This document shows positions 3,252-22,744 of a DNA stretch of 64,000 nt, one piece after another. The notes beneath the pieces were generated by a model. That model did no database searches. It worked only from the letters and a program-made list of their open reading frames with translations, and was not told the origin of the DNA. The stretch's first letter is position 1. Every line of letters begins with the position of its first letter. Made by a program: the position numbers and the translations under genes. Source of the DNA: Ferruginibacter sp. (GTDB taxonomy: Bacteria; Bacteroidota; Bacteroidia; Chitinophagales; Chitinophagaceae). The stretch is taken from the NCBI GenBank assembly GCA_017983695.1, contig JAGOAX010000010.1, positions 64,716 to 128,715 on the forward strand. The letters are read 5' to 3'.

Positions 3252-3364
3252 AAATTATTTATACTCTTCCATAACCGGTTAAATACATCAATTACTGCAC
3301 ACCCGGATATAATCATTGCCTTTGCACTTTAAAAATTTTATAGGCAGGGCAATAATGTACCGTG

Positions 3365-3442
3365 GTAACAATTTGGTAACATTAAGGAAACAATTCATTA
3401 ATGCTGCGATAACATTGCAGTAATCTCAACAGCCTCTCTTTG
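3365..3442 (+). promoter_or_regulatory. Putative Pho-box array (6 x 11-bp period) plus degenerate -7 element
   Basis: gtaaca 3365, gtaaca 3376, gaaaca 3387, ttaatg 3398, ataaca 3409, gtaatc 3420; TTTG at 3439 (19 nt after last unit start). Confidence 0.75.
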
Positions 3443-3446
3443 CAGC

Positions 3447-6239
3447 ATGAAAATTACGAACATGAGAAGCTACATCTTTATACTTACGTTTATTAGTTTA
3501 TCGTTTACAGCTCTTGCACAAAAAGGAAAGATAGAAGGAAAAATTACTGACTCAAAAACCGGTAACCCGATAGCTGGTATTTCAGTATTTGTTAAAGAAA
3601 CAGGAAAAGGTATTGCAACAGATCTGGAAGGCCGTTTTTCTTTTACGGTGGAAACGGGAAAGAAATATACTATTACCCTAAGCTCTACTAATTACGAAGC
3701 TAAAGAAATTACTGAGGTAGAAACCGGTGCCGATGGTATTGCACACCTTGATGTTACCTTAATACAAAAAGCTAAAACCGGCGAAGAAGTTATTGTAAAG
3801 AGCAGCACTGCAAAGAAAGAATCGGTAAGTGCCTTAATAGCATTTCAAAAAAACACCAATACAGTAGCTTCAGTTATTTCCGCCGAAGCTATCAGAAGAA
3901 GTCCTGACAGAAACACAGGTGAAGTGTTGAAGCGTTTACCAGGTACCAGCATTCAGGAAGGTAAGTTTTTGGTGGTAAGAGGTTTGGCCGACAGGTACAA
4001 CCAGGCGATGTTAAATGGTATTTTATTAACCAGTACTGAGCCAGACCGCAAAACTTTTTCTTTTGATATTATACCCAGTAATATGGTAGATAATATTGTA
4101 GTAAATAAAGCTTTTGTACCAGAACTTCCCGGGGAGTGGGCTGGTGGTTTAATACAGGTAAATACAAAAGATATTCCTACTAAAAATTTTTTCAATATTC
4201 AATTAAGCAGTGGTTTTAATACACAAACTATTGGTAAAGATTTTTACGAAGATAAAGGTGGCAAAACAGATTGGCTGGGTATAGATGACGGTACCAGAAA
4301 TTTACCTGCTGCATATACTACAAAAAGTGGTTTTGATACAGCAAGTTTTGCAAGTAAAACAGCTATGGGTAAGTCGATGCGTAATGCATGGGCACCCACA
4401 AAAATTGCAGCTCCTTTTAATACTGCTTTTGAATTGAATGGTGGATTTAAAGGAAAAGTATTTGGAAAAACACTGGGGGGCATTTTTGGTGTTACTTACC
4501 GCAAAAACAACAGCATTCAGGATATCGTAAACAGGCATAATAATTTTGAAAACGGAAGAGAGTTTAAGAATACTGACATTGATTTTAATGACGAACGCTA
4601 TTTACAAAGCACTGCAGTAAGTGCAATAGCCAGTTTATCGATGCAGCTGAACAATCTCAATAAAATTTCTTTAAAAAGTATTATAAGCACCAATACAGCT
4701 AACAGTACCATTTTAAGAAATGGTTTAGATGATACCCGTAACGAAGACATTATGGCTTATGAATATAGTTTTAAGCAAAATACTTTTTTTACTACACAAC
4801 TTACCGGCCAGCACAGCTTAACCAAGAGTTTAAAACTCAATTGGAATGGTGCTTTTACTATTTTAGATGGTTATTCTCCAGATCAAAGAAGGTTACAGTA
4901 TTCCAGAACTACCGGAACCGCAGATCCTTACAGAGCTATTGTATCCAATAACTTATCGCAGGCAAGTGGCAGCAGAATATATCAGATTTTAAACGATTAT
5001 ATCTACACCACCGGTGGTGATTTAACCTATACTTTAAAAAACAAGCAGACTATTAAAGGTGGTTACATGTTCCAGGTAAGAGACAGGTTGTTTGATGCAA
5101 AACTGTTTGCCAATTATTTGCCGGTTGATAATGATGCATTGAAACTATTGACACCTGATAAAATATTTGCACCCGAAAATTTTGGAAACGGCACCGATAA
5201 CAAGATAGCATTTGATGCCATCAAAGGAAGTACTTTCCGCTATTTGGCCAACACCATTTTAAATGCAGGCTACCTGCAAATGGATAACGAATTGTTTGAT
5301 AAACTGCGTTTGGTATGGGGTGTAAGAGTAGAACATTTTGACCAGTTGGTAGGTAGTGTAAAAAAATGGGATCCCCGTCACTCTTACTCAAAAGTAACTG
5401 ACTTTTTACCCGGCTTAAATGCTACCTACAAAATAAATCCAAAAACGAATCTCCGTTTGTCTGCTTCGCAAACAGTAATAAGGCCGGAGTTGAGAGAGCT
5501 TAGTGCACTTAACCTGTACGATTTTGAATTGAATGCTTCGGTTAATGGTAATCCAAACTTAAAACGCACCAAGATTACCAATTTAGATTTACGTTACGAA
5601 ATTTATAACCGCCCCGGAGAAGTATTTAGTGCGGGTGTATTTTACAAATATTTTAAAGATCCTATTGAGCAATTATTTAATGAAGGTATTGGTGGTGCAA
5701 GTACATTTAATTTTCAAAATGCTGAAAAAGCATATTCTGCAGGTATTGAATTAGAAGTAAGAAAAAAACTGGATTTTATTGCTGAGAAGATGGAAAACTT
5801 TACGCTGCAATCAAATATTGCTGTAATAAAAAGTAAGGTAACAGATGCGAAATTTAATTTAGACAGAAGCTTGCAAGGACAATCTAACTACCTGCTAAAT
5901 CTGGGGCTTTTATATGATGTGCCAAAACACGGTATAAACGCCACGGTATTATTTAATTTAATTGGCGAAAGAATATTTTTAGTAGGCGATAAAGCAGCCG
6001 GTGCATCATCTCCGGATGTGTACGAAGCACCACGCCCTTTATTGGATTTTCAATTAGCTAAAAAAGTAGCTAAAGGTAAGGCCGAAATAAAATTGAATGT
6101 ATCCGACATCATAAACAGGGTACAATATTTTTATCAAAACGCCAACAGCTCCAACGCTTTTCAAAAAAATACCGATGCCTACCGTTTTACCAGGAGGTTT
6201 GGTACAGCATTTAACGTAAGTATTAATTACTCTTTATAA
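3447..6239 (+). CDS. TonB-dependent receptor with N-terminal carboxypeptidase-regulatory-like domain (start may be 3462)
   Basis: Signal peptide, plug motifs (VVRGLADRYN, FSFDIIP, GEWAGGLI), barrel motifs (NPNLKRTKITNLDLRYE), C-terminal INYSL. Confidence 0.92.
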   Translation: MKITNMRSYIFILTFISLSFTALAQKGKIEGKITDSKTGNPIAGISVFVKETGKGIATDLEGRFSFTVETGKKYTITLSSTNYEAKEITEVETGADGIAHLDVTLIQKAKTGEEVIVKSSTAKKESVSALIAFQKNTNTVASVISAEAIRRSPDRNTGEVLKRLPGTSIQEGKFLVVRGLADRYNQAMLNGILLTSTEPDRKTFSFDIIPSNMVDNIVVNKAFVPELPGEWAGGLIQVNTKDIPTKNFFNIQLSSGFNTQTIGKDFYEDKGGKTDWLGIDDGTRNLPAAYTTKSGFDTASFASKTAMGKSMRNAWAPTKIAAPFNTAFELNGGFKGKVFGKTLGGIFGVTYRKNNSIQDIVNRHNNFENGREFKNTDIDFNDERYLQSTAVSAIASLSMQLNNLNKISLKSIISTNTANSTILRNGLDDTRNEDIMAYEYSFKQNTFFTTQLTGQHSLTKSLKLNWNGAFTILDGYSPDQRRLQYSRTTGTADPYRAIVSNNLSQASGSRIYQILNDYIYTTGGDLTYTLKNKQTIKGGYMFQVRDRLFDAKLFANYLPVDNDALKLLTPDKIFAPENFGNGTDNKIAFDAIKGSTFRYLANTILNAGYLQMDNELFDKLRLVWGVRVEHFDQLVGSVKKWDPRHSYSKVTDFLPGLNATYKINPKTNLRLSASQTVIRPELRELSALNLYDFELNASVNGNPNLKRTKITNLDLRYEIYNRPGEVFSAGVFYKYFKDPIEQLFNEGIGGASTFNFQNAEKAYSAGIELEVRKKLDFIAEKMENFTLQSNIAVIKSKVTDAKFNLDRSLQGQSNYLLNLGLLYDVPKHGINATVLFNLIGERIFLVGDKAAGASSPDVYEAPRPLLDFQLAKKVAKGKAEIKLNVSDIINRVQYFYQNANSSNAFQKNTDAYRFTRRFGTAFNVSINYSL

Positions 6240-6269
6240 TTTTTAAAATTTTAAAACATAAAAAACAAG

Positions 6270-7709
6270 ATGAAAAAGTACATTTTAATTCTATCAGCAA
6301 TTGTTGCACTAAGCAATACCGCTTGTAGAAAGATTGAAACAGACGGACAAATACAAGTGGTTACCATTAACACCGGCGGTGGCGGTGGTACAACAGGTCA
6401 AACTATTACAGTAGAAGGACGTATTACTTCGGATACCACCTTTAAAAAAGCCAATACCTACGTCTTAAAAGGTTTAGTGTATATAGCCAATAATAAAACA
6501 TTAACAATTGAACCAGGTACAACCATTAAAGGTTCATTCAGTGGCAGCGATGTTGCTGCATTAATTGTAACCCGTGGTGCAAAAATTGTAGCTAATGGTA
6601 CTGCAACAGAGCCTATTATTTTTACTTCTGCAAGCCCTAACCCACAAAGTGGCGATTGGGGTGGTATTGTAATTTGTGGTAAAGCGCCTATCAATACCAG
6701 TTTTAATGGTACTGCAGGTTTGTTTGAAGTAGAAGGTGGTGTTAATAATGCCAGTGGTGATGGTTTAGCAGGTAGCGGCGATGCAGTTGTACCTACAGCT
6801 ATTGCTAACGATAGTTCTGGCGTTTTACGTTATGTAAGAATAGAGTATGCAGGTTATGCATTTCAACCTGATAAAGAAATTAACAGTTTAACTATGGCTG
6901 CAGTAGGCAGCAAAACTGTAATTGAAAATGTACAAACTTATTTAGCAAAAGATGATGCTTTTGAATGGTTTGGTGGCACTGTAAATTGCAAATACCTGGT
7001 AGCTTATAAAACACAGGATGATGATTTTGATACTGATAACGGATATAGCGGTAAAGTACAGTTTGGATTAGCTATCAGGGATTCAGTAATTGCAGATGCC
7101 TCAAGATCGGAAGCATTTGAAAGTGATAATAATGCAGGGGGTACTACTGTTACACCAAAAACATCTGTTGTATTTAGTAATATGACGGCGATAGGCCCAA
7201 GGGCTACTGCCACAAGCGTAGGAAGTTCATTGTACAGGGCTGGTGCACATATCAGAAGAAACTCTGAAATGTCTTTATTAAATTCAGTAATTATTGGATG
7301 GCCCTTAGGAATTGAGGTAGATGGTACTACGGGTACAGCAACCGGCGCAAATGTGGGTACAGGTTTAGTATTGGCTAACAATTTTTTAGGGGGTAACACA
7401 GATAGCATTAAATATTCTGCCCCTGCAGGTTCTACTTATACCACTGCAGACTTAGTAACTTATTTTAAAGCAACTGCACAGGCAAACACTATATTAAATG
7501 GTACATTACCTAATACATTGTTTATACAGCCTTTTAACTACGCTACTCCAGATCCAACTCCCTTTGGCAATGCAACTGCAATAGTAACAAAAGCAAGTTT
7601 CACTAATGCAAAAGTTGCTGATGCCTTTTTTACTCCAACTAATTTTATAGGCGCTATTGCACCAAACGGTGCATTATCAAGCTGGTGGAAAGGCTGGACA
7701 AGATTTTAA
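6270..7709 (+). CDS. Lipoprotein with predicted right-handed beta-helix, partner of the TonB receptor
   Basis: Lipobox NTA-C; LTIEPGT, GDWGG, SGVLRYVRIEYAG, EINSLT, DDAFEWFGG, DDDFDTDNG, FESDN motifs. Confidence 0.8.
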   Translation: MKKYILILSAIVALSNTACRKIETDGQIQVVTINTGGGGGTTGQTITVEGRITSDTTFKKANTYVLKGLVYIANNKTLTIEPGTTIKGSFSGSDVAALIVTRGAKIVANGTATEPIIFTSASPNPQSGDWGGIVICGKAPINTSFNGTAGLFEVEGGVNNASGDGLAGSGDAVVPTAIANDSSGVLRYVRIEYAGYAFQPDKEINSLTMAAVGSKTVIENVQTYLAKDDAFEWFGGTVNCKYLVAYKTQDDDFDTDNGYSGKVQFGLAIRDSVIADASRSEAFESDNNAGGTTVTPKTSVVFSNMTAIGPRATATSVGSSLYRAGAHIRRNSEMSLLNSVIIGWPLGIEVDGTTGTATGANVGTGLVLANNFLGGNTDSIKYSAPAGSTYTTADLVTYFKATAQANTILNGTLPNTLFIQPFNYATPDPTPFGNATAIVTKASFTNAKVADAFFTPTNFIGAIAPNGALSSWWKGWTRF

Positions 7710-7738
7710 ATTATAAATAAAGAAGCCAAAAAATACCT

Positions 7739-7768
7739 AATCCCTTCAACTTATTGAAGGGATTTTTT
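7739..7768 (+). terminator. Rho-independent terminator of TonB receptor-lipoprotein operon
   Basis: aatcccttcaa-ctta-ttgaagggatt perfect 11-bp stem then T run. Confidence 0.85.
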
Positions 7769-7769
7769 A

Positions 7770-7826
7770 ATAACATTAATATCATTTTTGAATAATTATT
7801 TGGTAATACTACAAGGGCATCTTGCA
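7770..7826 (+). promoter_or_regulatory. Putative Pho-box array plus degenerate -7 element with no downstream CDS
   Basis: ataaca 7770, atcatt 7781, ataatt 7792, gtaata 7803; CTTGCA at 7821 (18 nt offset). Confidence 0.45.
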
Positions 7827-7829
7827 CCC

Positions 7830-7927
7830 GTAAACATAAAGCAGTTTAGTTTAATTTCTTAAGCAATAAGCAAATAGTCACATGCTTGTAAACCACCCGT
7901 TAGTCTTATCTGGGTGGTTCATTTTTT
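7830..7927 (+). ncRNA. Candidate phosphate-regulated small RNA (about 100 nt; 5' end approximate)
   Basis: Lies between the putative promoter and a GC-rich hairpin aaccacccg...tgggtggtt (7891-7919) followed by T6; no credible ORF. Confidence 0.3.
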
Positions 7928-7938
7928 ATCATCCGGTA

Positions 7939-7966
7939 TGTTAAATTAAGGTTACCAAATTGTTAC
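7939..7966 (-). promoter_or_regulatory. Reverse-oriented Pho-box-like array (3 x 11 bp)
   Basis: tgttaa 7939, ggttac 7950, tgttac 7961 (reverse complements ttaaca, gtaacc, gtaaca). Confidence 0.55.
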
Positions 7967-8058
7967 TATGCACATTTAAATCACATTCTTTTGCACAGCC
8001 TTGATTTAAAAAATTATGAAATTATATTCACATTCTAAAAAAACAAAAACTATAGTTT

Positions 8059-8550
8059 ATGAAATGGGTTAGCGTAAACAATGGTACTTCAAACGAAAAC
8101 TTTGAATTGTGGGAAGCCGATAAAAAATTAGCGGTTATCTCATTTAGCAATACCACACGTATTGCAAGAATTGTAAGCAACTTAGGCAAGCGGCTTTTCT
8201 TTTTTGAGAAAAAAGGATTGCTCACGCCAAAAGCTGTATTTAAAAATGAGTATGGTATAAAAATGGGTAAGCTGGAGCTGGAAAAACCCGGTGCCCAAAA
8301 TGGCTACCTGGAAATTGAAGAAAAAAAATACCGTTATGTTTTTAATGCCAATAATAATGGCGAACTAAATGTATATAACGAAACGATGAGTGAAACACTT
8401 ATTACCTGTAATTTCCCTGCTCCATCAAATTCGGTATCTAAAAATTCGTCTTTTTTAGATACTAAATTATCGAGCCTGTTACTTATACTTTGCTGGTATT
8501 CTTTTCAGCCTAAAAACACACATACCCAGGTAATGGAAGCCATTGCCTGA
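8059..8550 (+). CDS. Hypothetical protein
   Basis: 163-aa ORF with A-rich initiation region, TTTG element at 7990 upstream and terminator downstream. Confidence 0.75.
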   Translation: MKWVSVNNGTSNENFELWEADKKLAVISFSNTTRIARIVSNLGKRLFFFEKKGLLTPKAVFKNEYGIKMGKLELEKPGAQNGYLEIEEKKYRYVFNANNNGELNVYNETMSETLITCNFPAPSNSVSKNSSFLDTKLSSLLLILCWYSFQPKNTHTQVMEAIA

Positions 8551-8585
8551 TACTGATTTATTATTGTCATTAACTTTCTCCTGGT

Positions 8586-8616
8586 AAAAGTCACTTGTTA
8601 TACAAGTGACTTTTTT
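8586..8616 (+). terminator. Rho-independent terminator
   Basis: aaaagtcacttgt-tat-acaagtgactttt perfect 13-bp stem. Confidence 0.85.
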
Positions 8617-8627
8617 ATATTTACAGC

Positions 8628-9032
8628 ATGATGATGAAATATATTCTTTTGCTTCTATTGCTCCCGGTGCTGTTTTCCTGCACAAACCCCACCGGCATTA
8701 AAGAAATAATTACAGGTGCCGATAGTGTAGCCATCAATTATTTTAAAGGCGATGGCACTGCGGATACTGTAGTTAATATGGCAATGCTGAAAGATAAAAG
8801 CCAGATCAATAAACTGGCCGGTTATGTTGAAGCCGCCAAAGCAGAGCAATACAAATGCGGTTACGATGGCTCCATTCATATATTTAAAAGAGATGTAGTT
8901 TTGCAGGACATCAATTTTAGTTTTAACGATGTGCAATGCATGCATTTTTCATTTCTATTAAAAAATCAATTATACAGCACAAAACTTTCTGCCGAAGCGC
9001 TGCAGTTTATTAAATCAGTTAATAAAAAATAA
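8628..9032 (+). CDS. Hypothetical lipoprotein
   Basis: Signal peptide II with LFS-C lipobox. Confidence 0.75.
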   Translation: MMMKYILLLLLLPVLFSCTNPTGIKEIITGADSVAINYFKGDGTADTVVNMAMLKDKSQINKLAGYVEAAKAEQYKCGYDGSIHIFKRDVVLQDINFSFNDVQCMHFSFLLKNQLYSTKLSAEALQFIKSVNKK

Positions 9033-9044
9033 TACTGCCGTTTT

Positions 9045-9100
9045 GTAACAATTAAGTAATACTGTGTTTACAGCAGGTTTACATAGCAGGTGTTTCTTTG
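9045..9100 (+). promoter_or_regulatory. Putative Pho-box array (4 x 11 bp) plus degenerate -7 element
   Basis: gtaaca 9045, gtaata 9056, tttaca 9067, tttaca 9078; TTTG at 9097 (19 nt offset). Confidence 0.7.
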
Positions 9101-9114
9101 TAAAACATCTGTAA

Positions 9115-10188
9115 ATGAAAATCGCTTATCTTCTGGCATTCTGCCTGTTTACAAAACAATTGTTTTGTCAACAGGATAAATCCCCAAACATTTTTATTAT
9201 TACCACCGACGGCTTTCGCTGGCAGGAAATTTTTAATGGTGCCGATTCCACCATTATGGATAACCCCAGGTACGTAAAGGATACTGCCCTGCTAAAGCAA
9301 ATGTATTGGCATAAAGACACTGATGAAAGAAGAAAATTACTGATGCCTTTTATCTGGAAAACCCTTACCAAACAGGGTACAATTTACGGCAACCGCAATT
9401 ATAATAATAAAGTATCAGTTGCAAATCCTTATCGTTTTTCTTATGCTGGTTACAACGAAATTTTTACCGGCCATGCAGATAATACCGTAATTACTAATAG
9501 CAAAAAGTATAACCACAACCAAACTGTTTTAGATTTTTTGAATGAACAACCGGAGTACAAAAACAATGTGGCCGCTTTTACAAGCTGGAATTTATTTGAA
9601 TATATTTTTAATAAAAAAGAAAGTGGCATTTATTTAAACAGTGGTTACCAAACTATAGCACATGATTCGCTTACTGCCACAGAAATTCTTGCAAACGGTG
9701 TACAGCAACATGCTGTAAACAATTTACTAAGTACCCGGAATGATATGCTGACTTTTGTAACTGCAAAAGAATACATACAAACAAAACACCCTAAAGTAGT
9801 GTATATTGGTTTTGGCGAAACTGACGAATATGCCCATAGCGGCAAGTATGACGATTACCTGCAAAGCGCCCACTTATTTGATGAATACCTTTCGCAGCTT
9901 TGGTACATGGTTAATAAAGATCCCTTTTATAAAAACAATACCAGCTTTATTATTACTACCGATCATGGCCGGGGCAGTAAAACCAACAGCTGGGTAAGGC
10001 ACGATATGTTTACAAAAGGCAGTAGCAATACATGGCTGCTGACTCTGGGCCCTAAATTTGAAGCAAGGGGTGAAATGAAAAATAATGAAGAGATTTTTAA
10101 TGATCAGCTGGCACAAACCATAGCCCGTTTATTAGGGCATGAATTTACAGCAGATCATTTTGTAGCTGAGGCAATATCCCTGCAATAA
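9115..10188 (+). CDS. Secreted alkaline-phosphatase-superfamily protein
   Basis: Signal peptide; TTDGFRWQE, GETDEYAH and TTDHGRG metal-ligand motifs. Confidence 0.8.
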   Translation: MKIAYLLAFCLFTKQLFCQQDKSPNIFIITTDGFRWQEIFNGADSTIMDNPRYVKDTALLKQMYWHKDTDERRKLLMPFIWKTLTKQGTIYGNRNYNNKVSVANPYRFSYAGYNEIFTGHADNTVITNSKKYNHNQTVLDFLNEQPEYKNNVAAFTSWNLFEYIFNKKESGIYLNSGYQTIAHDSLTATEILANGVQQHAVNNLLSTRNDMLTFVTAKEYIQTKHPKVVYIGFGETDEYAHSGKYDDYLQSAHLFDEYLSQLWYMVNKDPFYKNNTSFIITTDHGRGSKTNSWVRHDMFTKGSSNTWLLTLGPKFEARGEMKNNEEIFNDQLAQTIARLLGHEFTADHFVAEAISLQ

Positions 10189-10196
10189 TGGCTGTT

Positions 10197-10469
10197 TTAT
10201 TTGGCTTTTTTAAGCGCAGGTTTTGCAATTTTTTTCTTTACTGTCTTTGCTGATTTAGTAACCACTTTTTTAGTTGGTTTAGCAATTACTTTTTTAACTG
10301 GCTTCTTTTCTATCCCAGCTACCAGTAATTTTGCAGCCTTTTTGATTCTTTTGTTAAATTTCTTTTCGCCAAGTTGCACCTTTAAAGCAGTTAGAGTGGT
10401 ATGCAACTGTTCTGTAACTGTTTTCAATATTTTTTCGCCAGCAACTGTAGTTTTCTTTTCTTTTGACAT
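10197..10469 (-). CDS. Small Lys-rich protein with histone H1-like tail
   Basis: Start at MSKEKK; C-terminal half KKPVKKVIAKPTKK...KKAK. Confidence 0.7.
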   Translation of the reverse strand: MSKEKKTTVAGEKILKTVTEQLHTTLTALKVQLGEKKFNKRIKKAAKLLVAGIEKKPVKKVIAKPTKKVVTKSAKTVKKKIAKPALKKAK

Positions 10470-10619
10470 CTGTATTTTATTAAATGATAACACAAACTTA
10501 ATATAAGATCAGGATTTCCAATGTTAAGTTTTAGCAGCGGTACAACAATTGATGCATTGCACTATTTTCCTGTACCGGCATTGGGATGTACCGGATAATA
10601 ATTTTAGATGAGCAAAGGC

Positions 10620-10790
10620 CTATTTCATTTTTTCTTCAGTATCCACATCCCCTTCTTCATTTTTTACTTTGTGGTAATCATTGTTCTGCTGTTGTTCAAA
10701 TTCTTTTTCATCCTTTGCATTGCGCTGCACCAGAAAAACAATTAAAGCAACGAGTGCTATACCCACAATAATTATTACTGTCCAGTTCAT
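10620..10790 (-). CDS. Small single-pass membrane protein, 56 aa (not in ORF track)
   Basis: MNWTVIIIVGIALVALIVFLVQRNAKDEKEFEQQQNNDYHKVKNEEGDVDTEEKMK*: TM helix plus charged tail. Confidence 0.75.
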   Translation of the reverse strand: MNWTVIIIVGIALVALIVFLVQRNAKDEKEFEQQQNNDYHKVKNEEGDVDTEEKMK

Positions 10791-10871
10791 ACATTTAAAA
10801 TTTGACTAAAGTTAACCTGTTTTTTGGGTAACGCATATTAATTCCCCTGTTATTGCTCCAAAAAAACTATA

Positions 10872-10926
10872 GTAACATTGTCTTAATAGTGGGGTAATAA
10901 TTTAGTAAAACACCGCCGGTAATTTG
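10872..10926 (+). promoter_or_regulatory. Putative Pho-box array (4 x 11 bp) plus degenerate -7 element
   Basis: gtaaca 10872, ttaata 10883, gtaata 10894, gtaaaa 10905; TTTG at 10923 (18 nt offset). Confidence 0.7.
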
Positions 10927-10944
10927 CAGTATAAAAATCTGTTG

Positions 10945-11637
10945 ATGCAAACTAACCCATCTATGTTTCGCCAAAATAAAATATACTTTACCGGCCTTAT
11001 AGCAGTATTATTATTCAGTACCCTGTTTTTATTGATCAATGGTAAAGCTGCAGCTTTTATTTCGCTTAACAGCTACCACCCTTTTTTATTGAACGTTTTT
11101 TTTATCAATTATACTTTTATGGGTGATGGCATTTTTGCATTGTGCCTAACTGCCGCAGTACTTTTTTATTTTAAAAGAAAACAAGAGGGTTTAGCATTAT
11201 TGTATTCATTTTTAATCTCCGGCATTGCTGTACAAATAATAAAAAACCTGGTAAACAGCCCAAGGCCAAAATTATTTTTTGAGGCTGGTCAATATTTACA
11301 TTTTATTGATGGGGTAAGCCTTGCAAATAATTCCAGCTTCCCGTCGGGCCATACAGCTACAGCATTTGCAATTGCCACAGTAATGGTGGTAATGATGAAA
11401 AATAAAAGCTGGCAGTTGTTTATTTTGATTGCAACAGTACTGGTAGGCTATTCCAGGATCTATTTAGCGCAACATTTTTTACTGGATATAATAATTGGTG
11501 CAATAATCGGTAGTGCATCTGGTGTATTATCGGTTTACTTAGCCAAAAATATAAAAGGCATTAAACGATCCATTAAAAAAATGCATCGTTTGTCTCCCGA
11601 TACGGCACCATTACCATCTGCCATACAGCCCGTATGA
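10945..11637 (+). CDS. PAP2-family membrane phosphatase
   Basis: C1 KNLVNSPRP, C2 SFPSGH, C3 SRIYLAQHFLLD; track start 10924 lies inside the -7 element so ATG 10945 (or 10963) is preferred. Confidence 0.9.
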   Translation: MQTNPSMFRQNKIYFTGLIAVLLFSTLFLLINGKAAAFISLNSYHPFLLNVFFINYTFMGDGIFALCLTAAVLFYFKRKQEGLALLYSFLISGIAVQIIKNLVNSPRPKLFFEAGQYLHFIDGVSLANNSSFPSGHTATAFAIATVMVVMMKNKSWQLFILIATVLVGYSRIYLAQHFLLDIIIGAIIGSASGVLSVYLAKNIKGIKRSIKKMHRLSPDTAPLPSAIQPV

Positions 11638-12017
11638 ATACAATGATTGATACCCGGTTTTTAAAGTTTGGAATAGTAGGATTAAGTGGCATGGCAATAG
11701 ATTTTTCTGTTACCTGGTTTTGTAAAGAGAAGTTACGCCTCAATAAATACATTGCTAATTCCACAGGATTTTGCTGCGCTGTTATTAATAATTTTATACT
11801 AAACCGCTACTGGACGTTTGGCAGCAACGGACATCCATTTGCCGGACAGTTTGCAAAATTTATTTTGGTTTCTCTGACAGGACTACTTATCAATAATTTA
11901 TTACTTTATTGCTGCTCAAAATATATCAAAACCAATTTTTACCTCATAAAACTTATTGTAACCGGCCTTGTTTTTTTCTGGAACTACTTTATAAATTTTC
12001 TTTTTACGTTTAATTAG
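11634..12017 (+). CDS. GtrA family lipid-linked sugar flippase
   Basis: 127 aa, 4 TM, KFGIVG...NFILNRYWTF; ATGA overlap with upstream gene. Confidence 0.9.
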   Translation: MNTMIDTRFLKFGIVGLSGMAIDFSVTWFCKEKLRLNKYIANSTGFCCAVINNFILNRYWTFGSNGHPFAGQFAKFILVSLTGLLINNLLLYCCSKYIKTNFYLIKLIVTGLVFFWNYFINFLFTFN

Positions 12018-12024
12018 CTGCAAT

Positions 12025-13572
12025 TTGAATTATAAAAAGAAAACCTTACTGCTTATTGGCTTTGCTACTTTATTGCGCTGGATTACCGCAGGTTGTATTG
12101 AGTTGGGTAACGACGAAGTGTATTACCGTATGTATGCACAGCACCTGCAATGGAATTATTTTGACCACCCGCCAATGGTAGGCTGGCTTATCAGGTTTAC
12201 AACTGCCAATCTTTTTTTTGATAATGAAATATTCATAAGGCTTGCTGCAATTATTGCTGCAGCCTTAACCAGTTGGATTTTCTTCCTCTCCGGTAAAAAA
12301 TTAGGTAATGACTACACCGGTTTTTTGGCTGTGGCAATTTATACGGCTACTATTTACGGAAGTATAATTGCCGGTACCTTTATTTTACCTGATTCGCCAC
12401 AAATGGTTTGCTGGGCCGCAGGTTTATATTTATTAATTGATATTGCAAAGCACTCTGATATCACCCGTATTAAAAAAAAGAAAGTAGTATGGTTTGGCGC
12501 AATAATGGGTTTAGGGATGCTTTGCAAAATTCATACTTCGTTTTTATGGCTCGGGTTTTTATTGTATATCCTTTTGTACAACAGGCAATGGTTAAGGCAA
12601 CCTGTATTATATCTCTCCGGCATAATTACCTTACTATTTTTTTACCCGGTTATACAATGGAATATCGATAACCATTTTGTTACTTATCTCTACCACAGCA
12701 ACAGGGTAAACATTAGCAAAGCCGGAATTGATTTCACGTCGTTTTTAACTTTTGCAGCAGGGCAGCTATTTTACTACAACCCGGTTATTTTTATTTGTAT
12801 TATTATAGCAACTGTTGCCGCTATTAAAAATAAATTGCCTGTATTATCTTTCCAAAAAAGAATATTGCTGCTTTGTAGCTTACCATTAATAATTACTGCC
12901 ACTATTATTTCCTTATTTAAAAATGTATTGCCGCACTGGACCGGACCGGCATACAGCAGCCTTATATTATTAACGGCCTGCTATTTTGCAAAGCAAAAAA
13001 GTGATGAAAAAATAATGCCCCAGCCCATACTTTTTGCTAACGCTTTACTTATTGTAATAATTATCAGCGGCATTATGCTGGCAAATCTTTTACCCGGCAC
13101 ACTAGGCAAAAAAGATAAGCAATTGTATGGTGAGGGAGATTTTACTTTAGATATGTATGGATGGAAAAGTTTGAAATCCGATTTTTCAAAAATAGTTGAA
13201 GCTGATATAAAAAATGGACTGATGAAACCTGGAGCAGTTATCATCGGCAATAAATGGTTTCCGGCAGCACATACAGATTTTTATGTGGCCATGCCGCTAA
13301 AAAAAGATTTTATTGCTATTGGTGATACTAATGAAATACATCAGTACGCCTGGATAAACACACAAAGGAAAAAGCTGCAACCGGGTGATAATGCTTATTG
13401 TATAGTACCCTCTAATTACAATACCGATGTACAAGCCTTTTATGATGAAAATTTTACAACAATACTACCTCCTCAAGTAATTGAGCAAAAAAGAAATGGT
13501 ACTGTTTGCCGATATTTTTATATCTGGCGGCTACTGCATTTCAAACAAAATCAAAATCCCCTTTTAAAATAA
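12025..13572 (+). CDS. GT-C glycosyltransferase (ArnT/PMT-like, family 39/83)
   Basis: DEVYY and YFDHPPMVGW motifs, many TM segments, periplasmic C-terminal domain. Confidence 0.85.
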   Translation: MNYKKKTLLLIGFATLLRWITAGCIELGNDEVYYRMYAQHLQWNYFDHPPMVGWLIRFTTANLFFDNEIFIRLAAIIAAALTSWIFFLSGKKLGNDYTGFLAVAIYTATIYGSIIAGTFILPDSPQMVCWAAGLYLLIDIAKHSDITRIKKKKVVWFGAIMGLGMLCKIHTSFLWLGFLLYILLYNRQWLRQPVLYLSGIITLLFFYPVIQWNIDNHFVTYLYHSNRVNISKAGIDFTSFLTFAAGQLFYYNPVIFICIIIATVAAIKNKLPVLSFQKRILLLCSLPLIITATIISLFKNVLPHWTGPAYSSLILLTACYFAKQKSDEKIMPQPILFANALLIVIIISGIMLANLLPGTLGKKDKQLYGEGDFTLDMYGWKSLKSDFSKIVEADIKNGLMKPGAVIIGNKWFPAAHTDFYVAMPLKKDFIAIGDTNEIHQYAWINTQRKKLQPGDNAYCIVPSNYNTDVQAFYDENFTTILPPQVIEQKRNGTVCRYFYIWRLLHFKQNQNPLLK

Positions 13573-13581
13573 AAGGGGATT
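13555..13581. terminator. Hairpin terminator between convergent remodelling operons
   Basis: aatcccctttt-aaaat-aaaaggggatt perfect 11-bp stem overlapping the stop codon. Confidence 0.7.
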
Positions 13582-13706
13582 AGTTTTTACTTACTAAAAC
13601 TACCAGGAGAAAAACTTTGCTGTTTATCAAAGTAAAAGTAGTGTGTCATTTTCATTCTGCGGTTAAGCCAGCGTTATACAATTATTAATCTTCCCATTTA
13701 TATATA

Positions 13707-15071
13707 CTACGGTTGCAAAGAAACTACTCCTGTATTTGTTAAAAACCGGCCATACCAGTTGCCGGATTCTTTTACAATTCTTTGCTGCGTTTCAAAATCA
13801 ACATACACAAGCCCAAACCTCGGATGAAACCCTTCTGCCCATTCAAAATTATCCAGTAAGGTCCAAACAAAATAACCATTCACATTCACGCCTTCTTTTT
13901 TTGCCAGCAACACCTGCGCCACATGATCTTGCAAATAAGCCATCCGTTGCCGGTCGTTTACCTGGCCATTAACAGGTTCGTCTTTAAATGCTGCACCATT
14001 TTCTGTAACAATAATTTCTTTTATACCAACATACTGACCGATCCTTTTCAACGCTTCATAAATAGCAGGCGGATAAATTTCCCAGTTCATCAAAGTATGC
14101 TCCACATTCCGCTTGTTGGCCTTTATAATTTTAGCCCGTACAAAAGGCATAAAGGGTGCATAACTTACCAGTTCCCGGGTATAATTCTGCAAGCCAATAA
14201 AATCCATATCAAAAGCCAGTTTCCCCTCATCTCCCGGATACATAAACCGTTCTATCCTTTCTAATATTTTTAATTCTTTTGTGGGATAGCCCATGCCCAG
14301 CAATGGTTCAATAAACATACGGTTCAATAAAGCATCTACTTTTTTTGCTGCAGCAATATCCCGGTCGGTATAACTATAGGGTTCAATATGAGAATAAGAA
14401 ATGGTGGTGCCTACTTTACAATCGTTACGCAGGGTTTTTATTATGCGGCCACCTTCGGCCTGGCATAACGCAGCATGATGTGCTGCTGATAAAAAATTGG
14501 TCAAGCCTTTTTTACCCGGCGCATGTACACCTAAAAAATATCCGGCTCCGGTAAATACCATCGGTTCGTTTAATACCATCCAGTGCTTAACCCTGTCGCC
14601 AAATTGCTTAATGCAGCAATCAGTAAAATATCCAAACCAGTGTATCACTTCTCTGTTTGTCCAGCCGCCTTTCTGTTGCAATGCTTCCGGTAAATCCCAA
14701 TGGTATAAAGTAATCCATGGTTCAATACCAAGTTCAAGGCAAAAATCAATAATGCGGTTATAAAAATCTATGCCCTTATGATTGATGGGACCAATACCCT
14801 GCGGCAAAATCCGGCTCCAGGAAATGGAGAACCTGTAATTGGGAATATTGAGTTCATACATCAGGGCAATATCTTCTGCATAGCGGTTGTAAAAATCGCA
14901 GGCTATATTGCCGTTGTGGTTATCAATTATTTTTTTCTTTTTCTGGGCAAAAGTATCCCATATAGAAAGCCCCTTGCCATCTGCAATATGTGCGCCTTCT
15001 ATCTGGTAAGCTGCTGTAGAAACCCCCCATTTAAAATCTGCTCCAAAATCTTCCTTTGTAAATAACATCAT
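13707..15071 (-). CDS. GH1 beta-glucosidase, cytoplasmic
   Basis: AYQIEG, YRFSISWSRI, TLYHWDLP, NEP acid/base, TENG nucleophile, DNFEW; no signal peptide. Confidence 0.95.
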   Translation of the reverse strand: MMLFTKEDFGADFKWGVSTAAYQIEGAHIADGKGLSIWDTFAQKKKKIIDNHNGNIACDFYNRYAEDIALMYELNIPNYRFSISWSRILPQGIGPINHKGIDFYNRIIDFCLELGIEPWITLYHWDLPEALQQKGGWTNREVIHWFGYFTDCCIKQFGDRVKHWMVLNEPMVFTGAGYFLGVHAPGKKGLTNFLSAAHHAALCQAEGGRIIKTLRNDCKVGTTISYSHIEPYSYTDRDIAAAKKVDALLNRMFIEPLLGMGYPTKELKILERIERFMYPGDEGKLAFDMDFIGLQNYTRELVSYAPFMPFVRAKIIKANKRNVEHTLMNWEIYPPAIYEALKRIGQYVGIKEIIVTENGAAFKDEPVNGQVNDRQRMAYLQDHVAQVLLAKKEGVNVNGYFVWTLLDNFEWAEGFHPRFGLVYVDFETQQRIVKESGNWYGRFLTNTGVVSLQP

Positions 15072-16160
15072 TTAGCCCCCTATTTGATTTAATATTTTTC
15101 CGAGGCTGATGTCTTTTAATTTTTTGGCTGAATAGGCCGTTTCTCCCAACGCAGCAGCAGCAGGAGGTTTAACTGTGCCGTGTTTCTTTATAATGCCATT
15201 GATGATTTTTTCTGTAATGTTGGGATAATTAACAGAGAGGATCAATTTGGATGTTGTCCAGGCCTGTATTTTTTCGAGGTGTTTTTCTTTTAAACTTTTT
15301 ATTACCGGCACACCCATGGTTTTTAAAGCAGCAGCATTACATTGCTGTTCGTATTGTCCCTTCATAGGAATTACCATCAGTTTCTTTTTTAAAAACAAAG
15401 CCTCTGCCGGTGTTTCAAATCCTGCTCCGCAAAGTATGCCGGTACAGTTGATCATGCTGTCAATGAAAGCATCATTACTAATGGGGCGTATGTGTACGTT
15501 TTTTTCTGTGTACTCTTTTTTAGAATGCTTGCTGAACACCTGCCAGTTAATATTTTTTACCTGGCTCAATATTTTAACAATACGTTTATCATCATAAGCA
15601 GGAAGGTAAACTGTATAATGGCCTTTATTTTCTGCAACAGCTTTGCGTACCTGGCTTCTTATTACCGGAGTAGAAATATTTTTATCGTAAGCGCCAAAAT
15701 GAAAACCGTAGGCTTCGGTAACCGGTGCATAATTATGTAAGATGGCTTTACCTACAGGATCTTTCTTTTCGGGCTTAGGAGATTTTTTATTGATAACTGC
15801 GGCCTGGTGGCTTAAACCAATACATGTTTTATGTTTCATTTTACAGGCCCAGGCGCTTACGGGTTCAAAATCGTTTATTACAAGATCGTACTGCTCTACT
15901 GGCAAACTCTTAATTTCTTTATACAGTTTTTTTAAATTGCTCTTCCGGTAAGTTGCTAATAGATCAATGCCCCCCTTCTTACCAAAAATAAAACTCAACC
16001 CTTTAAATTTATATTTTACCGGATAAGGCAATTCCACATCGGCTTGTATGCCACTTACCAAAATATCCAGCTCCCCCTTTTGCTGCAATATGGGAATAAT
16101 ATCTCTTGCCCTGCTTAAGTGGCCGTTACCTGTGCCTTGTATGGCATATAATATTTTCAT
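15072..16160 (-). CDS. MJ1255/VC2487-family GT-B glycosyltransferase
   Basis: MKILYAIQGTGNGHLSRA, DFEPVSAW, AGFETPAEAL, GQYEQQCNA. Confidence 0.88.
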   Translation of the reverse strand: MKILYAIQGTGNGHLSRARDIIPILQQKGELDILVSGIQADVELPYPVKYKFKGLSFIFGKKGGIDLLATYRKSNLKKLYKEIKSLPVEQYDLVINDFEPVSAWACKMKHKTCIGLSHQAAVINKKSPKPEKKDPVGKAILHNYAPVTEAYGFHFGAYDKNISTPVIRSQVRKAVAENKGHYTVYLPAYDDKRIVKILSQVKNINWQVFSKHSKKEYTEKNVHIRPISNDAFIDSMINCTGILCGAGFETPAEALFLKKKLMVIPMKGQYEQQCNAAALKTMGVPVIKSLKEKHLEKIQAWTTSKLILSVNYPNITEKIINGIIKKHGTVKPPAAAALGETAYSAKKLKDISLGKILNQIGG

Positions 16161-17017
16161 CAGTTGCGCATTAAATTAAATTCCTCCACCATGTTATCAA
16201 ATAAGGTACTGTTATCCAATTCTTCCTCTTCAATTACAGACGCTTTCATTTTCAGCATTTCCTGTTCATCAAATTTATATATCTGCCATTCATTGTTTAC
16301 GTATTCCAAAGCTGTTAAATTTTCTATCCAGTCGCCACTGTTTAAATATAAAATTTTTCCATGCCCGTTTACAATTTCTCTCATCTCCGGCTGATGAATA
16401 TGTCCGCACACCACATAATCGTAATTATTGCTTATGCCTATCGCTGCTGCAGTATCTTCAAAATTGTTAATAAATTTTACTGCACTCTTTACACTATTCT
16501 TTATTTTTTTTGAGAGGGAAAGTTTTCCCCTGCCAAATATTTTTTCTGAAATAAAATTTGCCACCCGGTTAATTAAAATCAGGGTATCATACCCAACAGC
16601 TCCCAATTTAGCCAGCCATTTACTATGTTGCATGGTTACATCAAATACGTCACCATGAAAAAACCAGGCTTTTTTTCCATCATCCAAATCAAGCACCACC
16701 TTGTTTACAATTCGTAACGATCCCATTTTAAACCCTGCAAACTTCCGCAGCATTTCATCGTGGTTGCCGGTAACATAATACAGTTTTACCCCTTTGCTCA
16801 TCCAGCCCATAATATGCTTCACCACTTTCATGTGGCTTTTAGGCCAGTACCGTTTGCTGAACTGCCAAATATCAACAATATCACCATTTAAGACTACAAT
16901 TTTTGGTTTGATAGTTATAAGATAGTGTAATAGCTCTTTGGCATGGCAACCATAAGTACCAAGGTGAACATCGGAGAGCACCAGAATATCCAGTTTTCTT
17001 TTTTTAGTTGCCGCCAT
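16160..17017 (-). CDS. PlcP/LpxH-like metallophosphoesterase (likely phospholipase C by context)
   Basis: SDVHLG, GDIVDIW, GNHD, HGDVFD, GHIH, NSGDW; coupled to a glycosyltransferase. Confidence 0.85.
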   Translation of the reverse strand: MAATKKRKLDILVLSDVHLGTYGCHAKELLHYLITIKPKIVVLNGDIVDIWQFSKRYWPKSHMKVVKHIMGWMSKGVKLYYVTGNHDEMLRKFAGFKMGSLRIVNKVVLDLDDGKKAWFFHGDVFDVTMQHSKWLAKLGAVGYDTLILINRVANFISEKIFGRGKLSLSKKIKNSVKSAVKFINNFEDTAAAIGISNNYDYVVCGHIHQPEMREIVNGHGKILYLNSGDWIENLTALEYVNNEWQIYKFDEQEMLKMKASVIEEEELDNSTLFDNMVEEFNLMRN

Positions 17018-17118
17018 TAACCAATTTTCAAAAACTTAAATGGCGAGCTAAGGAAAGCAATACGAAATAGAAACAGCCGCACAATAAAACTCAGCAAAAA
17101 GAATTGAAGATTTTTCAT
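17017..17118 (-). CDS. Candidate 33-aa hydrophobic small protein coupled to the plcP-like gene (not in ORF track)
   Basis: MKNLQFFLLSFIVRLFLFRIAFLSSPFKFLKIG*; stop overlaps next ATG (TAATG); A-rich leader taatttcaaaATG. Confidence 0.4.
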   Translation of the reverse strand: MKNLQFFLLSFIVRLFLFRIAFLSSPFKFLKIG

Positions 17119-17176
17119 TTTGAAATTATTGGGTTAGTAAAAAATTATCAAATAAAAAATAAAGGAACACAAACTG

Positions 17177-17215
17177 TCTTACCTGAATGTTACGCTAACA
17201 TTAAGTAAGTGTTAA
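17177..17215 (-). promoter_or_regulatory. Putative Pho-box array facing the plcP-like operon
   Basis: Reverse units ttaaca (17210), ttaatg (17199), gtaaca (17188), gtaaga (17177), 11-bp period. Confidence 0.65.
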
Positions 17216-17238
17216 TGAATACGTAGCCGTATCAATAC

Positions 17239-17294
17239 TTAATGATTTCGCAATACTGGCTTAACACAGGCTTAATAATGCAAAGGCAATTTTG
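17239..17294 (+). promoter_or_regulatory. Putative Pho-box array plus degenerate -7 element facing the choice-of-anchor I gene
   Basis: ttaatg 17239, gcaata 17250, ttaaca 17261, ttaata 17272; TTTG at 17291 (19 nt offset). Confidence 0.65.
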
Positions 17295-20826: not shown

Positions 20827-20860
20827 AGCTTTACCTGTACAAGTTATAGGTAAAGCTTTT
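20827..20860. terminator. Bidirectional terminator
   Basis: agctttacctgta...tataggtaaagct stem between convergent genes. Confidence 0.75.
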
Positions 20861-21908
20861 AATCTTTCTTTTTAGGTAATGTAAAACCAAAGGTGGTACC
20901 TACATCAATTTTACTGCGTACATGAATGGTCTGACCATGGGCTTCCACAATATGTTTGCAAATAGAAAGACCTAAACCACTACCCCCAACTTTCCTGCTT
21001 CTTGCTAAATCGGTACGATAAAACCTTTCAAATATCCTGGGTAAATGTTCTTCTGCAATACCGGAGCCATCATCACTGATCTCTATTAATATTCTACGAC
21101 CATCTATCCGGTAAAAGCTACTTTCTATTGTGCCATTTTGCTTACCATACTTGATCGCATTGTCTACAAGATTTATAAAAACCTGCCGTATTTTTTCTTT
21201 ATCGGCATAAACAGTTAATGGTTGTTCGCAGCCTTTTTTAATAATGCATTTAATTTCTTTTTCTTCTGCTTTAATAGCTAAGGTTTCATACACTTCCTTC
21301 AGCAGGTCCTGTATCACAAAATTTTGCTGGTACAGCAATTGTTCGCCACTTTCTAATTTTGATATTTCATCAAGGTCATCTACTAAATTCACCAGTCGGT
21401 CAACATTACGGGAAGTGCTGTTTAAAAATTTTTTATTTACATCAGGATTTTCCAAAGCGCCATTTAATAAAGTATCTACATAACCCTGTATGGCAAAAAT
21501 CGGTGTCTTTAATTCATGACTCAGATTTTGCAAAAATTCTTTGCGGTAAGTTTCGTTTTGCTGCAGTAATTCTATTTCTTCTTTACGCTGTATGGCCCAT
21601 TTTTCCACGTCTTCCCTTACTTCATCAATGCCTTTCTGGGGTAAAATATTTTTATAGTAAAACTCTTCTCTTTTGCTGGCCTTGGTTTGATAAATGAGTT
21701 TGTAAATGAGTTTTATTTTGCGGTAAATAAAAGTTTGCAGTGCGTAAGATATTAATGCATAGCTGCCCAAAAACATGGCTACAAATGAAACCAACGGTAT
21801 CCACCAAACCGGTTTAAAAATAAAAACCACAATTGCCACCGGCACCGATAAACCCAATGCCGTTAATGCAGATAATTGTTGTGGTGAAAGATTTTTTTGT
21901 GAAGGCAT
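20859..21908 (-). CDS. phoR: Sensor histidine kinase, PhoR-like
   Basis: Two N-terminal TMs, SHELKTP H-box, NLVDNAIKYG, DDGSGI, GGSGLGL; located in a phosphorus cluster. Confidence 0.8.
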   Translation of the reverse strand: MPSQKNLSPQQLSALTALGLSVPVAIVVFIFKPVWWIPLVSFVAMFLGSYALISYALQTFIYRKIKLIYKLIYQTKASKREEFYYKNILPQKGIDEVREDVEKWAIQRKEEIELLQQNETYRKEFLQNLSHELKTPIFAIQGYVDTLLNGALENPDVNKKFLNSTSRNVDRLVNLVDDLDEISKLESGEQLLYQQNFVIQDLLKEVYETLAIKAEEKEIKCIIKKGCEQPLTVYADKEKIRQVFINLVDNAIKYGKQNGTIESSFYRIDGRRILIEISDDGSGIAEEHLPRIFERFYRTDLARSRKVGGSGLGLSICKHIVEAHGQTIHVRSKIDVGTTFGFTLPKKKD

Positions 21909-21987: not shown

Positions 21988-22662
21988 CTATATTTCAAAC
22001 TTATACCCTACGCCTTTTACAGTGCTGATGCAATCAAGGTCTAATTTTTGGCGAATTTTGCGGATGTGTACATCAATGGTACGGTCGCCAACTATAACTT
22101 CAGTGCCCCAAATAGTGTTCAATATTTCGTTGCGTAAAAAAACTTTGCCGGGTTTGCCAGCCAGTAAAGCCAGTAATTCAAATTCTTTTCTGGCCAGTAC
22201 AATATCGTTTCCTTTAAAATTGATCATATATTTCTCCCTGTCAATTTCAAGATCACCCACTTTTAACACTTTGGGTCCATCATTACTAAACCTTCTGAAC
22301 AAGGCATTTACCTTACTCACTAAAACTTTAGGGCTTATAGGTTTTGTCAGGTAATCATCGGCCCCACTTTCCAACCCTTTCACTTCGGTGCCTTCATCAC
22401 TCAATGCAGTTAAAAAAATAATAAGGGTATTTTTAAAAGCGGGCAGGCTGCGTAAAGTATTACAAACTTCCATCCCGGTTTTACCCGGCATCATAATATC
22501 CAGTATTATCAAATCCGGAAGGGTTCGTTTTGCTTTTTCGATGGCTTCGTTGCCGTTCTTTGCAGTAATCACTTCAAAACCTTCTCCCTGCAAATTGTAT
22601 TGGATGATCTCCAGGATATCGGGCTCATCATCGGCAATTAATATTTTTTTAACAGTACTCAT
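21988..22662 (-). CDS. phoP: OmpR-family response regulator, PhoP/PhoB-like
   Basis: DDEPDI, LDIMMP, GADDYLTKP, DRTIDVHIRKIR, VKGVGYKF; start moved to ATG 22662 because the -7 box overlaps 22680. Confidence 0.82.
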   Translation of the reverse strand: MSTVKKILIADDEPDILEIIQYNLQGEGFEVITAKNGNEAIEKAKRTLPDLIILDIMMPGKTGMEVCNTLRSLPAFKNTLIIFLTALSDEGTEVKGLESGADDYLTKPISPKVLVSKVNALFRRFSNDGPKVLKVGDLEIDREKYMINFKGNDIVLARKEFELLALLAGKPGKVFLRNEILNTIWGTEVIVGDRTIDVHIRKIRQKLDLDCISTVKGVGYKFEI

Positions 22663-22675
22663 AAGTAAAACGTTG

Positions 22676-22685
22676 TGCAAAAGTA
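22676..22685 (-). promoter_or_regulatory. Housekeeping -7 element of phoPR
   Basis: TACTTTTGCA on the minus strand, a perfect TAnnTTTG. Confidence 0.7.
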
Positions 22686-22727: not shown

Positions 22728-22744
22728 TATTATCAAATTGTTAA
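22728..22744 (-). promoter_or_regulatory. Possible two-unit Pho box upstream of phoP (autoregulation)
   Basis: Reverse units ttaaca (22739) and ataata (22728), 11 bp apart; only two units. Confidence 0.3.

Follow-up and report, generated by a model that had tools for sequence, protein, structure and literature searches.

The stretch of DNA analysed here – 64,000 nucleotides of a Ferruginibacter genome sampled from a wastewater metagenome (contig JAGOAX010000010.1, positions 64,716 to 128,715, hereafter the window) – opens within a phosphorus-scavenging island of ~40 kb that comprises the first 23 kb of the window and the 17 kb preceding it. In the window's part of the island Pfam matches identify a TonB receptor, a Metalloenzyme gene, a PAP2-GtrA-PMT_2 operon, a PlcP-like Metallophos gene with a glycosyltransferase and GH1, a choice-of-anchor I gene and Metallophos N/C. 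Phosphonate genes (HAD, DUF5690 and a TIGR03364-family oxidase) also belong to the island, and its upstream flank carries PHO4/Pit and PhoU_div, SusC/D, two Phosphoesterase-family genes and a TonB-dependent receptor. Among these genes lie arrays of a short hexamer repeated every 11 bp. We argue that these arrays are very probably the sites of a PhoB/PhoP-type regulator of the phosphate-starvation response, that is, the Pho box of this lineage.

A first-pass annotation of the window had reported seven such arrays, and each was found at its given start and on its given strand, with an exact 11-bp period. They are set out below with their -7 promoter boxes; offset denotes the distance from the start of the last hexamer to the TTTG (or CTTG) of the box.

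3363..3428, + strand: six-unit array with hexamers at 3365, 3376, 3387, 3398, 3409 and 3420, reading GTAACA GTAACA GAAACA TTAATG ATAACA GTAATC
3435..3442, + strand: -7 box TCTCTTTG of the 3365 array; TTTG at offset 19
7768..7811, + strand: weak four-unit array from 7770, ATAACA ATCATT ATAATT GTAATA; 19.3 bits, the weakest array of the set
7817-7824, + strand: -7 box GCATCTTG of the 7770 array; offset 18, CTTG at 7821
7936..7968, - strand: three-unit inverted array (7939-), GTAACA GTAACC TTAACA; 22.1 bits with the relatives-only matrix
9043..9086, + strand: four-unit array (9045+), GTAACA GTAATA TTTACA TTTACA; precedes the alkaline-phosphatase-superfamily (Metalloenzyme) gene 9115-10188
9093-9100, + strand: -7 box TTTCTTTG of the 9045 array; offset 19
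10870..10913, + strand: four-unit array (10872+), GTAACA TTAATA GTAATA GTAAAA; 32.7 bits; precedes the PAP2-GtrA-PMT_2 operon 10924-13572
10919-10926, + strand: -7 box GTAATTTG of the 10872 array; offset 18
17174..17217, - strand: four-unit array (17177-), TTAACA TTAATG GTAACA GTAAGA; 30.1 bits; heads a leftward operon
leftward operon of the 17177- array, - strand: PlcP-like metallophosphoesterase 16160-17017, then glycosyltransferase and GH1
17160-17167, - strand: -7 box TTCCTTTA of the 17177- array; offset 19
17237..17280, + strand: four-unit array (17239+), TTAATG GCAATA TTAACA TTAATA; 29.8 bits; precedes the choice-of-anchor I gene 17318-18883
17287-17294, + strand: -7 box CAATTTTG of the 17239 array; offset 19

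The array at 3365, at 34.4 bits the best match of the genome scan, serves the TonB-dependent receptor operon at 3447-7709 (Pfam). Together the seven arrays contain 29 hexamer units. The 11-bp period claimed for them is exact throughout, but the claimed unit pattern, (G/T/A)TAA(C/T)A, proved too narrow: 16 of the 29 units fit it exactly, the other 13 being off at one or two positions. Alignment of the units as 11-mers gives tgGTAACAtt with a TAA core. Hexamer positions 2 (T) and 4 (A) are near-invariant, with G or T at position 1 and C or T at position 5. The arrays on the + strand were said to end 18-19 nt before a TTTG or CTTG, and so they do, at offsets of 19, 18, 19, 18 and 19; the same relation, claimed as a fixed one, extends to the 17177- array (19 nt).

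These sites have the sequence attributes of a Pho box: they are 11-bp direct repeats, they hold a fixed place by the proximal promoter element, and they precede pst, phosphatase and phosphorus-scavenging genes. The reading is supported by the nature of those genes, by the retention of phase and offset across dozens of species and by the presence of the array at 14 of 15 pst operons. The evidence from other genomes carries most weight and is presented first.

For the cross-genome comparison the 300 nt upstream of orthologues were scored for the best four-unit array at each period from 7 to 16, with a cut-off of at least 14 bits and with sequences that lay outside the training set. Among relatives, arrays at period 11 were found as follows.

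PlcP-like gene: four-unit array in 15 of 19
435-aa beta-barrel-like gene: four-unit array in 10 of 13
Metalloenzyme gene: four-unit array in 7 of 17, in 6 of them with TTTG at offset 19
PAP2 gene: four-unit array in 2 of 5
choice-of-anchor I gene: four-unit array in 2 of 3

At all the other periods the five families together gave a single match (Metalloenzyme, period 9). The upstream regions of purD, a housekeeping gene that served as a control, contained no four-unit array at any period (0/28). The promoter of the PlcP-like gene was then followed through 75 named species of Ferruginibacter, Sediminibacterium, Ginsengibacter, Segetibacter, Parafilimonas and other genera: an array was present at period 11 in 50 of the 75, and at any other period in at most one. 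Cultured bearers of the box at this promoter are Ginsengibacter hankyongi BR5-29 (29.6 bits) and Segetibacter sp. 3557_3 (23.6 bits). In view of these named relatives, the assignment to Chitinophagaceae in the first-pass annotation is reasonable. In 30 of these 50 arrays TTTG stands at +19 from the start of the last hexamer; TTTA stands there in eight, and TTTG is found at +18 in two and at +20 in one. The sequences of the units drift between species and yet the phase is kept, which is more than plain sequence conservation would provide. The box had been named after the Chitinophagaceae but is not specific to them. Arrays occur in other families of the phylum too: a phylum-wide sample gave period 11 in 11 of 29 and nothing at periods 9, 10, 12 or 13, with arrays of four to six units in one family outside the window's class.

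The hallmark of a Pho regulon is the pst operon, and pstC is present in only 38 of 121 genomes of the family. A first look at 1.5-kb flanks of pstC in relatives revealed arrays in just 2 of 30, a result that at first looked contrary to the Pho-box reading. The low count arises because an unannotated gene of 400-450 amino acids precedes pstS, the order in the operon being unannotated gene, pstS (confirmed by Pfam as PBP_like_2), pstC. When sequence further upstream was fetched, 14 of 15 pst operons of the family showed a four-unit array (15.9-33.3 bits) directly 5' of the first gene, and a match at another period was seen only once (period 9), that is, in at most 1 of 15. At exactly offset 19 the promoters carry TTTG in 14 cases and TTTA in one; in the fifteenth genome a pair of good units keeps this offset. 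The sequence GCTTAACATTA AGGTAACATTA GAATAATGTTG CGGTAACATAT caaatcgtccTTTGca is typical of these sites. The hallmark Pho operon thus bears the same box.

The first gene of the pst operon in these relatives (loci L266-L280) encodes a product of 400-450 amino acids with a signal peptide, an end in ...VYRLTFYYIYGK and no Pfam match. It is probably an outer-membrane beta-barrel and possibly a phosphate porin. The secreted 435-aa protein of the Ferruginibacter genome itself gave no significant BLASTP match to this pre-pstS gene of relatives and belongs to no Pfam family, and for want of support from either search we use "porin-like" as a suggestion. The sole PBP_like_2 (PstS-like) gene of the same genome sits in a TonB/ExbBD-like cluster.

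Within the window the motif is clearly in excess. The spaced pair DTAAYA-N5-DTAAYA occurs nine times against an expectation of 1.77, a count that none of 100 dinucleotide-preserving shuffles reached, and all nine pairs fall in the first 23 kb. Across the genome the picture differs. Chains of the strict pattern [GTA]TAA[CT]A show no enrichment at period 11 (101 pairs and two triples, equal to other periods); this pattern is overly strict, and the periodicity of coding sequence dominates the counts. Outside the window, the matrix derived from the 29 units likewise showed no overall preference for period 11, whether all DNA or only intergenic DNA was scanned. We read this as the mark of a small, clustered set of sites and not of a false motif; proof must therefore rest on other genomes.

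That the sites are clustered is apparent from a scan of the 4.48 Mb with a matrix made from relatives only. Eight of the ten best three-unit matches lie within 32 kb (C33:50265-81995), and a ninth lies on another contig, 29 nt upstream of ppk1 (19.1 bits with the 29-unit matrix). Two of these matches, at C33:50265 and C33:51628, are absent from the set first reported. The former (25.2 bits with the 29-unit matrix) is located ~14 kb upstream of the window, between the PhoU_div/PHO4(Pit) pair and the gene for the secreted 435-aa protein. A six-unit array at C33:51641-51701 has TTTG at offset 19, followed by ~140 nt without an open reading frame (ORF) and then by a terminator. A three-unit array precedes the SusC/D-phosphoesterase operon. 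Together with the ppk1 site, these were the best matches of the 29-unit matrix that had no part in its training.

How might such sites work? By analogy with known regulators of this type, a phosphorylated PhoB/PhoP-type protein would contact each 11-bp unit through one winged-helix domain, with dimers arranged head-to-tail, so that four units would accommodate two dimers and six units three. Measured from its start, the proximal hexamer stands 19 nt (at times 18) ahead of the TTTG in the Bacteroidota -7 box. With the G of this TTTG near -7, the hexamer would extend from about -29 to -24 and a four-unit array out to about -62, and the array would occupy the place of the -33 element. Bound activator would recruit RNA polymerase, and transcription would depend upon it, as at class II PhoB promoters. 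From the arrays and their surroundings we infer the identity of the binder, activation, induction when phosphate is scarce and the location of the elements with respect to the transcription start. The predicted targets within the window are the TonB-dependent receptor operon, the alkaline-phosphatase-like enzyme, the PAP2-GtrA-glycosyltransferase operon, the PlcP-type lipid-remodelling operon and the choice-of-anchor I protein. Just upstream of it they would include the secreted beta-barrel-like protein by Pit/PhoU_div and the SusC/D-phosphoesterase operon. One or two small ORF-less transcripts may be added to these and, elsewhere in the genome, probably ppk1.

The promoters themselves bear on the question of activator dependence. 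Flavobacterium promoters have their -33 and -7 elements roughly 19 nt apart. A TTTG often occupies the spacer that precedes the last unit of an array; with ~15 nt between it and the -7 octamer downstream, it is ~4 nt too near to serve as a -33 element, from which we infer that a usable -33 is lacking and that an activator is needed. As to the -7 box, both the three "perfect" housekeeping octamers (25123, 28144 and 50309) and the five -7 octamers of the arrays read as they had been quoted. The further proposal, that the -7 element of array promoters is weakened by lack of the leading TA, survives only in part. TAnnTTTG accounts for 20.5% of the TTTG upstream of genes in this genome; against that background it occurs in none of 15 pst promoters and in one of nine array promoters of the genome itself, the exception being the SusC promoter TACTTTTG; at PlcP promoters it occurs in 7 of 38, which is about the ~20% of background. 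TAnTTTG, with a background of 9.8%, is found in 13 of 38 PlcP promoters. The absence of the leading TA is a tendency rather than a rule. The spacer ahead of a unit often reads ATTTG (for instance at 3371-3376), and hence TTTG recurs within arrays.

The entity that binds these arrays may be encoded in the island itself.

21988..22680, - strand: OmpR/PhoB-family response regulator, the genome's best PhoB match and candidate binder
20859..21908, - strand: histidine kinase of 349 aa, PhoR/PnpS-like; its HisKA-HATPase C-terminal part alone matches models
22728..22744, - strand: a pair of phased units, TTAACA N5 ATAATA, 5' of the regulator gene and off the 19-nt offset

Among five full-length OmpR-type regulators of the genome, the product of 21988-22680 scores ~222 bits (221.6-222.1) on TIGR02154 against 181.8 for the next. 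We consider it the likely binder, with a confidence somewhat below that which we attach to the Pho-box reading, and it would be paired with the kinase at 20859-21908. Its own promoter is canonical (TACTTTTG) and has no four-unit array; the two phased units upstream may be an autoregulation site. The Pit(PHO4)/PhoU_div pair, for its part, adjoins a Pho box, an arrangement that recalls the control of PhoPR by PitA-PitR in S. aureus (PMC13170248).

Several observations weigh against the interpretation of the arrays as the Pho box of an adjacent PhoB-like protein. In the genome at hand, at 99.6% completeness, pstC, the classical anchor gene, was not found. Because the 29-unit matrix was built from units first reported in this very window, the scores of the window's own arrays are circular and the cross-genome tests alone are independent. 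In those tests no array was found at the PlcP promoters of 25 of the 75 named species, nor at the PlcP genes of one low-GC family (f19). The supposed fixity of the offset fails in the family of 435-aa beta-barrel-like proteins, which has three units and an offset of 21 instead of 19, and no -7 box was found on the - strand for the 7939- array. The proteins are also imperfect matches. The regulator falls below the curated PhoB cut-offs (296.2 on TIGR02154; 201.9 against 270 on NF053854), for which reason we call it PhoB-like rather than proven PhoB, and the kinase, which is short, scores 256.8 against a cut-off of 400 for PnpS and 229.6 against 334.2 for PhoR (TIGR02966/NF053855). Metatranscriptome contigs consist of scattered fragments of related strains, too sparse for start sites or expression.

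Other explanations were considered. The arrays might be real but bound by a different OmpR-family regulator, be it one of the four others or a redox regulator akin to ArcA. Reverse-complemented, TTAACA gives TGTTAA, the repeat of ArcA, and the PhoP motif of Riemerella has been reported as similar to the E. coli ArcA motif; moreover, the genome has five full-length OmpR-type regulators to choose from, the adjacent one being under the PhoB equivalog cut-off and its own promoter without a four-unit array. Against this, the arrays serve phosphorus-scavenging genes, joined in relatives by the pst operon, and the adjacent regulator lies inside the island and is 40 bits ahead of the next candidate on the PhoB model. 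We regard a different regulator as improbable.

Fainter still is the prospect that phased A/T-rich words merely bend the DNA, or act as an UP-element-like booster, with no dedicated regulator. Units rich in A/T and a phasing of 11 bp, near the helical repeat, are what such an account would call for, but it sits poorly with the conservation of G/T at position 1 and C/T at position 5, with near-invariant T2 and A4, with the confinement of arrays to phosphorus genes (none at the purD control) and with a distance to the -7 box that is fixed to the nucleotide; we give it very little credence. As for the possibility that the eye had selected chance matches from A/T-rich intergenic sequence, only 16 of the 29 units fit the pattern, period 11 is in no genome-wide excess outside the window and the 7770 array is weak. 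Yet nine pairs stand against 1.77 expected, with no shuffle of 100 reaching nine, and the period tests give 50/75 against at most 1/75 for PlcP and 14/15 against at most 1/15 for pst. A chance origin of the whole set is ruled out by the shuffles and the cross-genome period tests, and we would give that account next to no weight.

With the arrays interpreted as a Pho box, comparison with known systems is instructive. In Bacillus subtilis the core site of PhoP consists of four TT(A/T/C)ACA repeats with a period of ~11 bp, located roughly between -20 and -60. This is the closest system: the half-sites are near-identical (TTAACA/GTAACA), the repeats are direct and spaced by 11 bp, there are typically four units corresponding to two dimers, and they sit on the coding strand, immediately ahead of the proximal promoter element. 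The arrays described here differ in belonging to another phylum with another sigma factor and -33/-7 TAnnTTTG promoters in place of -35/-10, in having G as commonly as T at position 1 and from three to six units, and in being predicted from sequence. The E. coli Pho box, also made of 11-nt direct repeats (two, with a CTGTCAT core; PMC4415409), shares 11-nt units that are part conserved and part variable, the replacement of the upstream promoter element and a location ahead of pst, phosphatase and ppk-type genes; it differs in its core, whereas the arrays usually have at least four units and are found in a genome without Pst or PhoU. The PHO boxes of Streptomyces coelicolor (11-nt units, GTTCACC; PMC2275107) resemble ours in their variable number of units, the Streptomyces operators having core and extension units. 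They have a GC-rich core and another promoter type, and are validated by footprints.

Nearer in phylogeny is PhoP of Riemerella anatipestifer, of the same phylum and likewise an OmpR/PhoB-type regulator, for which DNA affinity purification sequencing found TTTAACA most conserved, in a motif that the authors liken to that of E. coli ArcA (PMC9603813). The core TTAACA is shared with our arrays. That study differs in reporting 583 peaks and in tying PhoP to virulence and aerotolerance, and describes no 11-bp array or fixed promoter offset; one probe used for electrophoretic mobility shift had TTAACA repeats 9 bp apart (PMC9603813). The ArcA sites of E. coli, as cited within the same paper, are direct repeats of TGTTAA at 11 bp; there the repeat is the reverse complement of TTAACA, the spacing is the same and the number of repeats is variable. 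ArcA differs in acting on respiration genes, mostly as a repressor, where the genes at hand are phosphorus genes. A paper on Bacteroides fragilis PhoB defined no box (PMC3547664). The Pho regulon of the Bacteroidota has been defined solely by proteomics in Flavobacterium, in work in which a phoBR knockout was unobtainable, no operator was described and most isolates lacked pstSABC (bioRxiv 10.1101/719427). A broad survey did not identify PhoPR in genomes of several taxa, Bacteroidota included (PMC13170248). A literature search for "Pho box" with Bacteroidetes, Flavobacterium or Bacteroidota returned no description. The kind of operator is already familiar; what is new is that it is spelled out for this group and given a defined geometry with respect to the -7 box of the Bacteroidota.

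The Bacteroidota, and especially the Chitinophagaceae of wastewater and soil, are major recyclers of organic phosphorus. The strict geometry of the box – 11-bp units, the last of them 19 nt before the TTTG of the -7 element – should make the regulon predictable from genomes and metagenome-assembled genomes alone, and the sequence model points to unannotated genes and candidate small RNAs that would respond to phosphate starvation. The box also offers a defined template for the study of activation at the unusual promoter of the Bacteroidota. A broader picture may be drawn in which a PhoB-type activator is wired to the -33/-7 promoter by a 19-nt rule with no properly spaced -33, the Pho regulon in most of the family operates with neither Pst nor PhoU, conserved small RNAs sharing TTAGCAAGTTTTCTCATGCTTG (window 7831-7925 and a paralogue ~21 kb upstream) are driven by the box, and the Pit/PhoU_div (PitR-like) pair acts as the likely phosphate-sensing partner of the short kinase. 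That all of this should hold jointly is a tentative proposal, to which we would give somewhat less than an even chance.

The small RNAs of that picture derive from two orphan loci. Beyond the -7 box of the 7770 promoter ~100 nt without an ORF lead to a hairpin terminator (7891-7925). All three elements, array, -7 box and terminator, recur in the same place in four to five genomes of the genus, where the arrays are better than the window's own, the -7 box lies at offset 18, a conserved TTAGCAAGTTTTCTCATGCTTG comes just before the terminator, and the sequence of the terminator stem varies by genome. The same 18-mer, TTAGCAAGTTTTCTCATGCTTG, follows the six-unit array upstream of the window (locus L001, 6926-7150, equivalent to C33:51641-51865). 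The two loci (window 7817-7925 and C33:51641-51865) are candidate paralogous small RNAs that would be induced by phosphate starvation; taken alone, the 7770 array is possibly a chance match. An Rfam search of the window and its flank produced no match, and a consensus structure computed for the candidate gave no information because MAFFT had misaligned the terminators. The reverse complement of the shared TTAGCAAGTTTTCTCATGCTTG contains CATGAGAAAA, which resembles a start-codon region.

Two further array-like matches were noted. One, a four-unit match of 14.1 bits at 13647-13690 on the - strand, is probably due to chance, because it falls in the convergent gap between the ends of the genes at 12025-13572 and 13707-15071, where a promoter is not expected. 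The other, outside the window at C32:251683-251726 on the - strand (15-20 bits), lies between two + strand genes with no gene downstream on its own strand and is possibly a false positive.

The inverted array, 7939-, lies ~123 nt upstream of a gene of unknown function (8059-8550) and is strongly conserved: both its position and its inverted orientation are kept in six genomes, at orthologues of that gene; it could mediate repression, or activation from an unusual position. Between the array and the gene, positions 7967-8058 are conserved genus-wide, with ctatgcacatttaa..cacattcttt... and ttgaaattatattcac, and this stretch may serve as another operator or as a structured leader.

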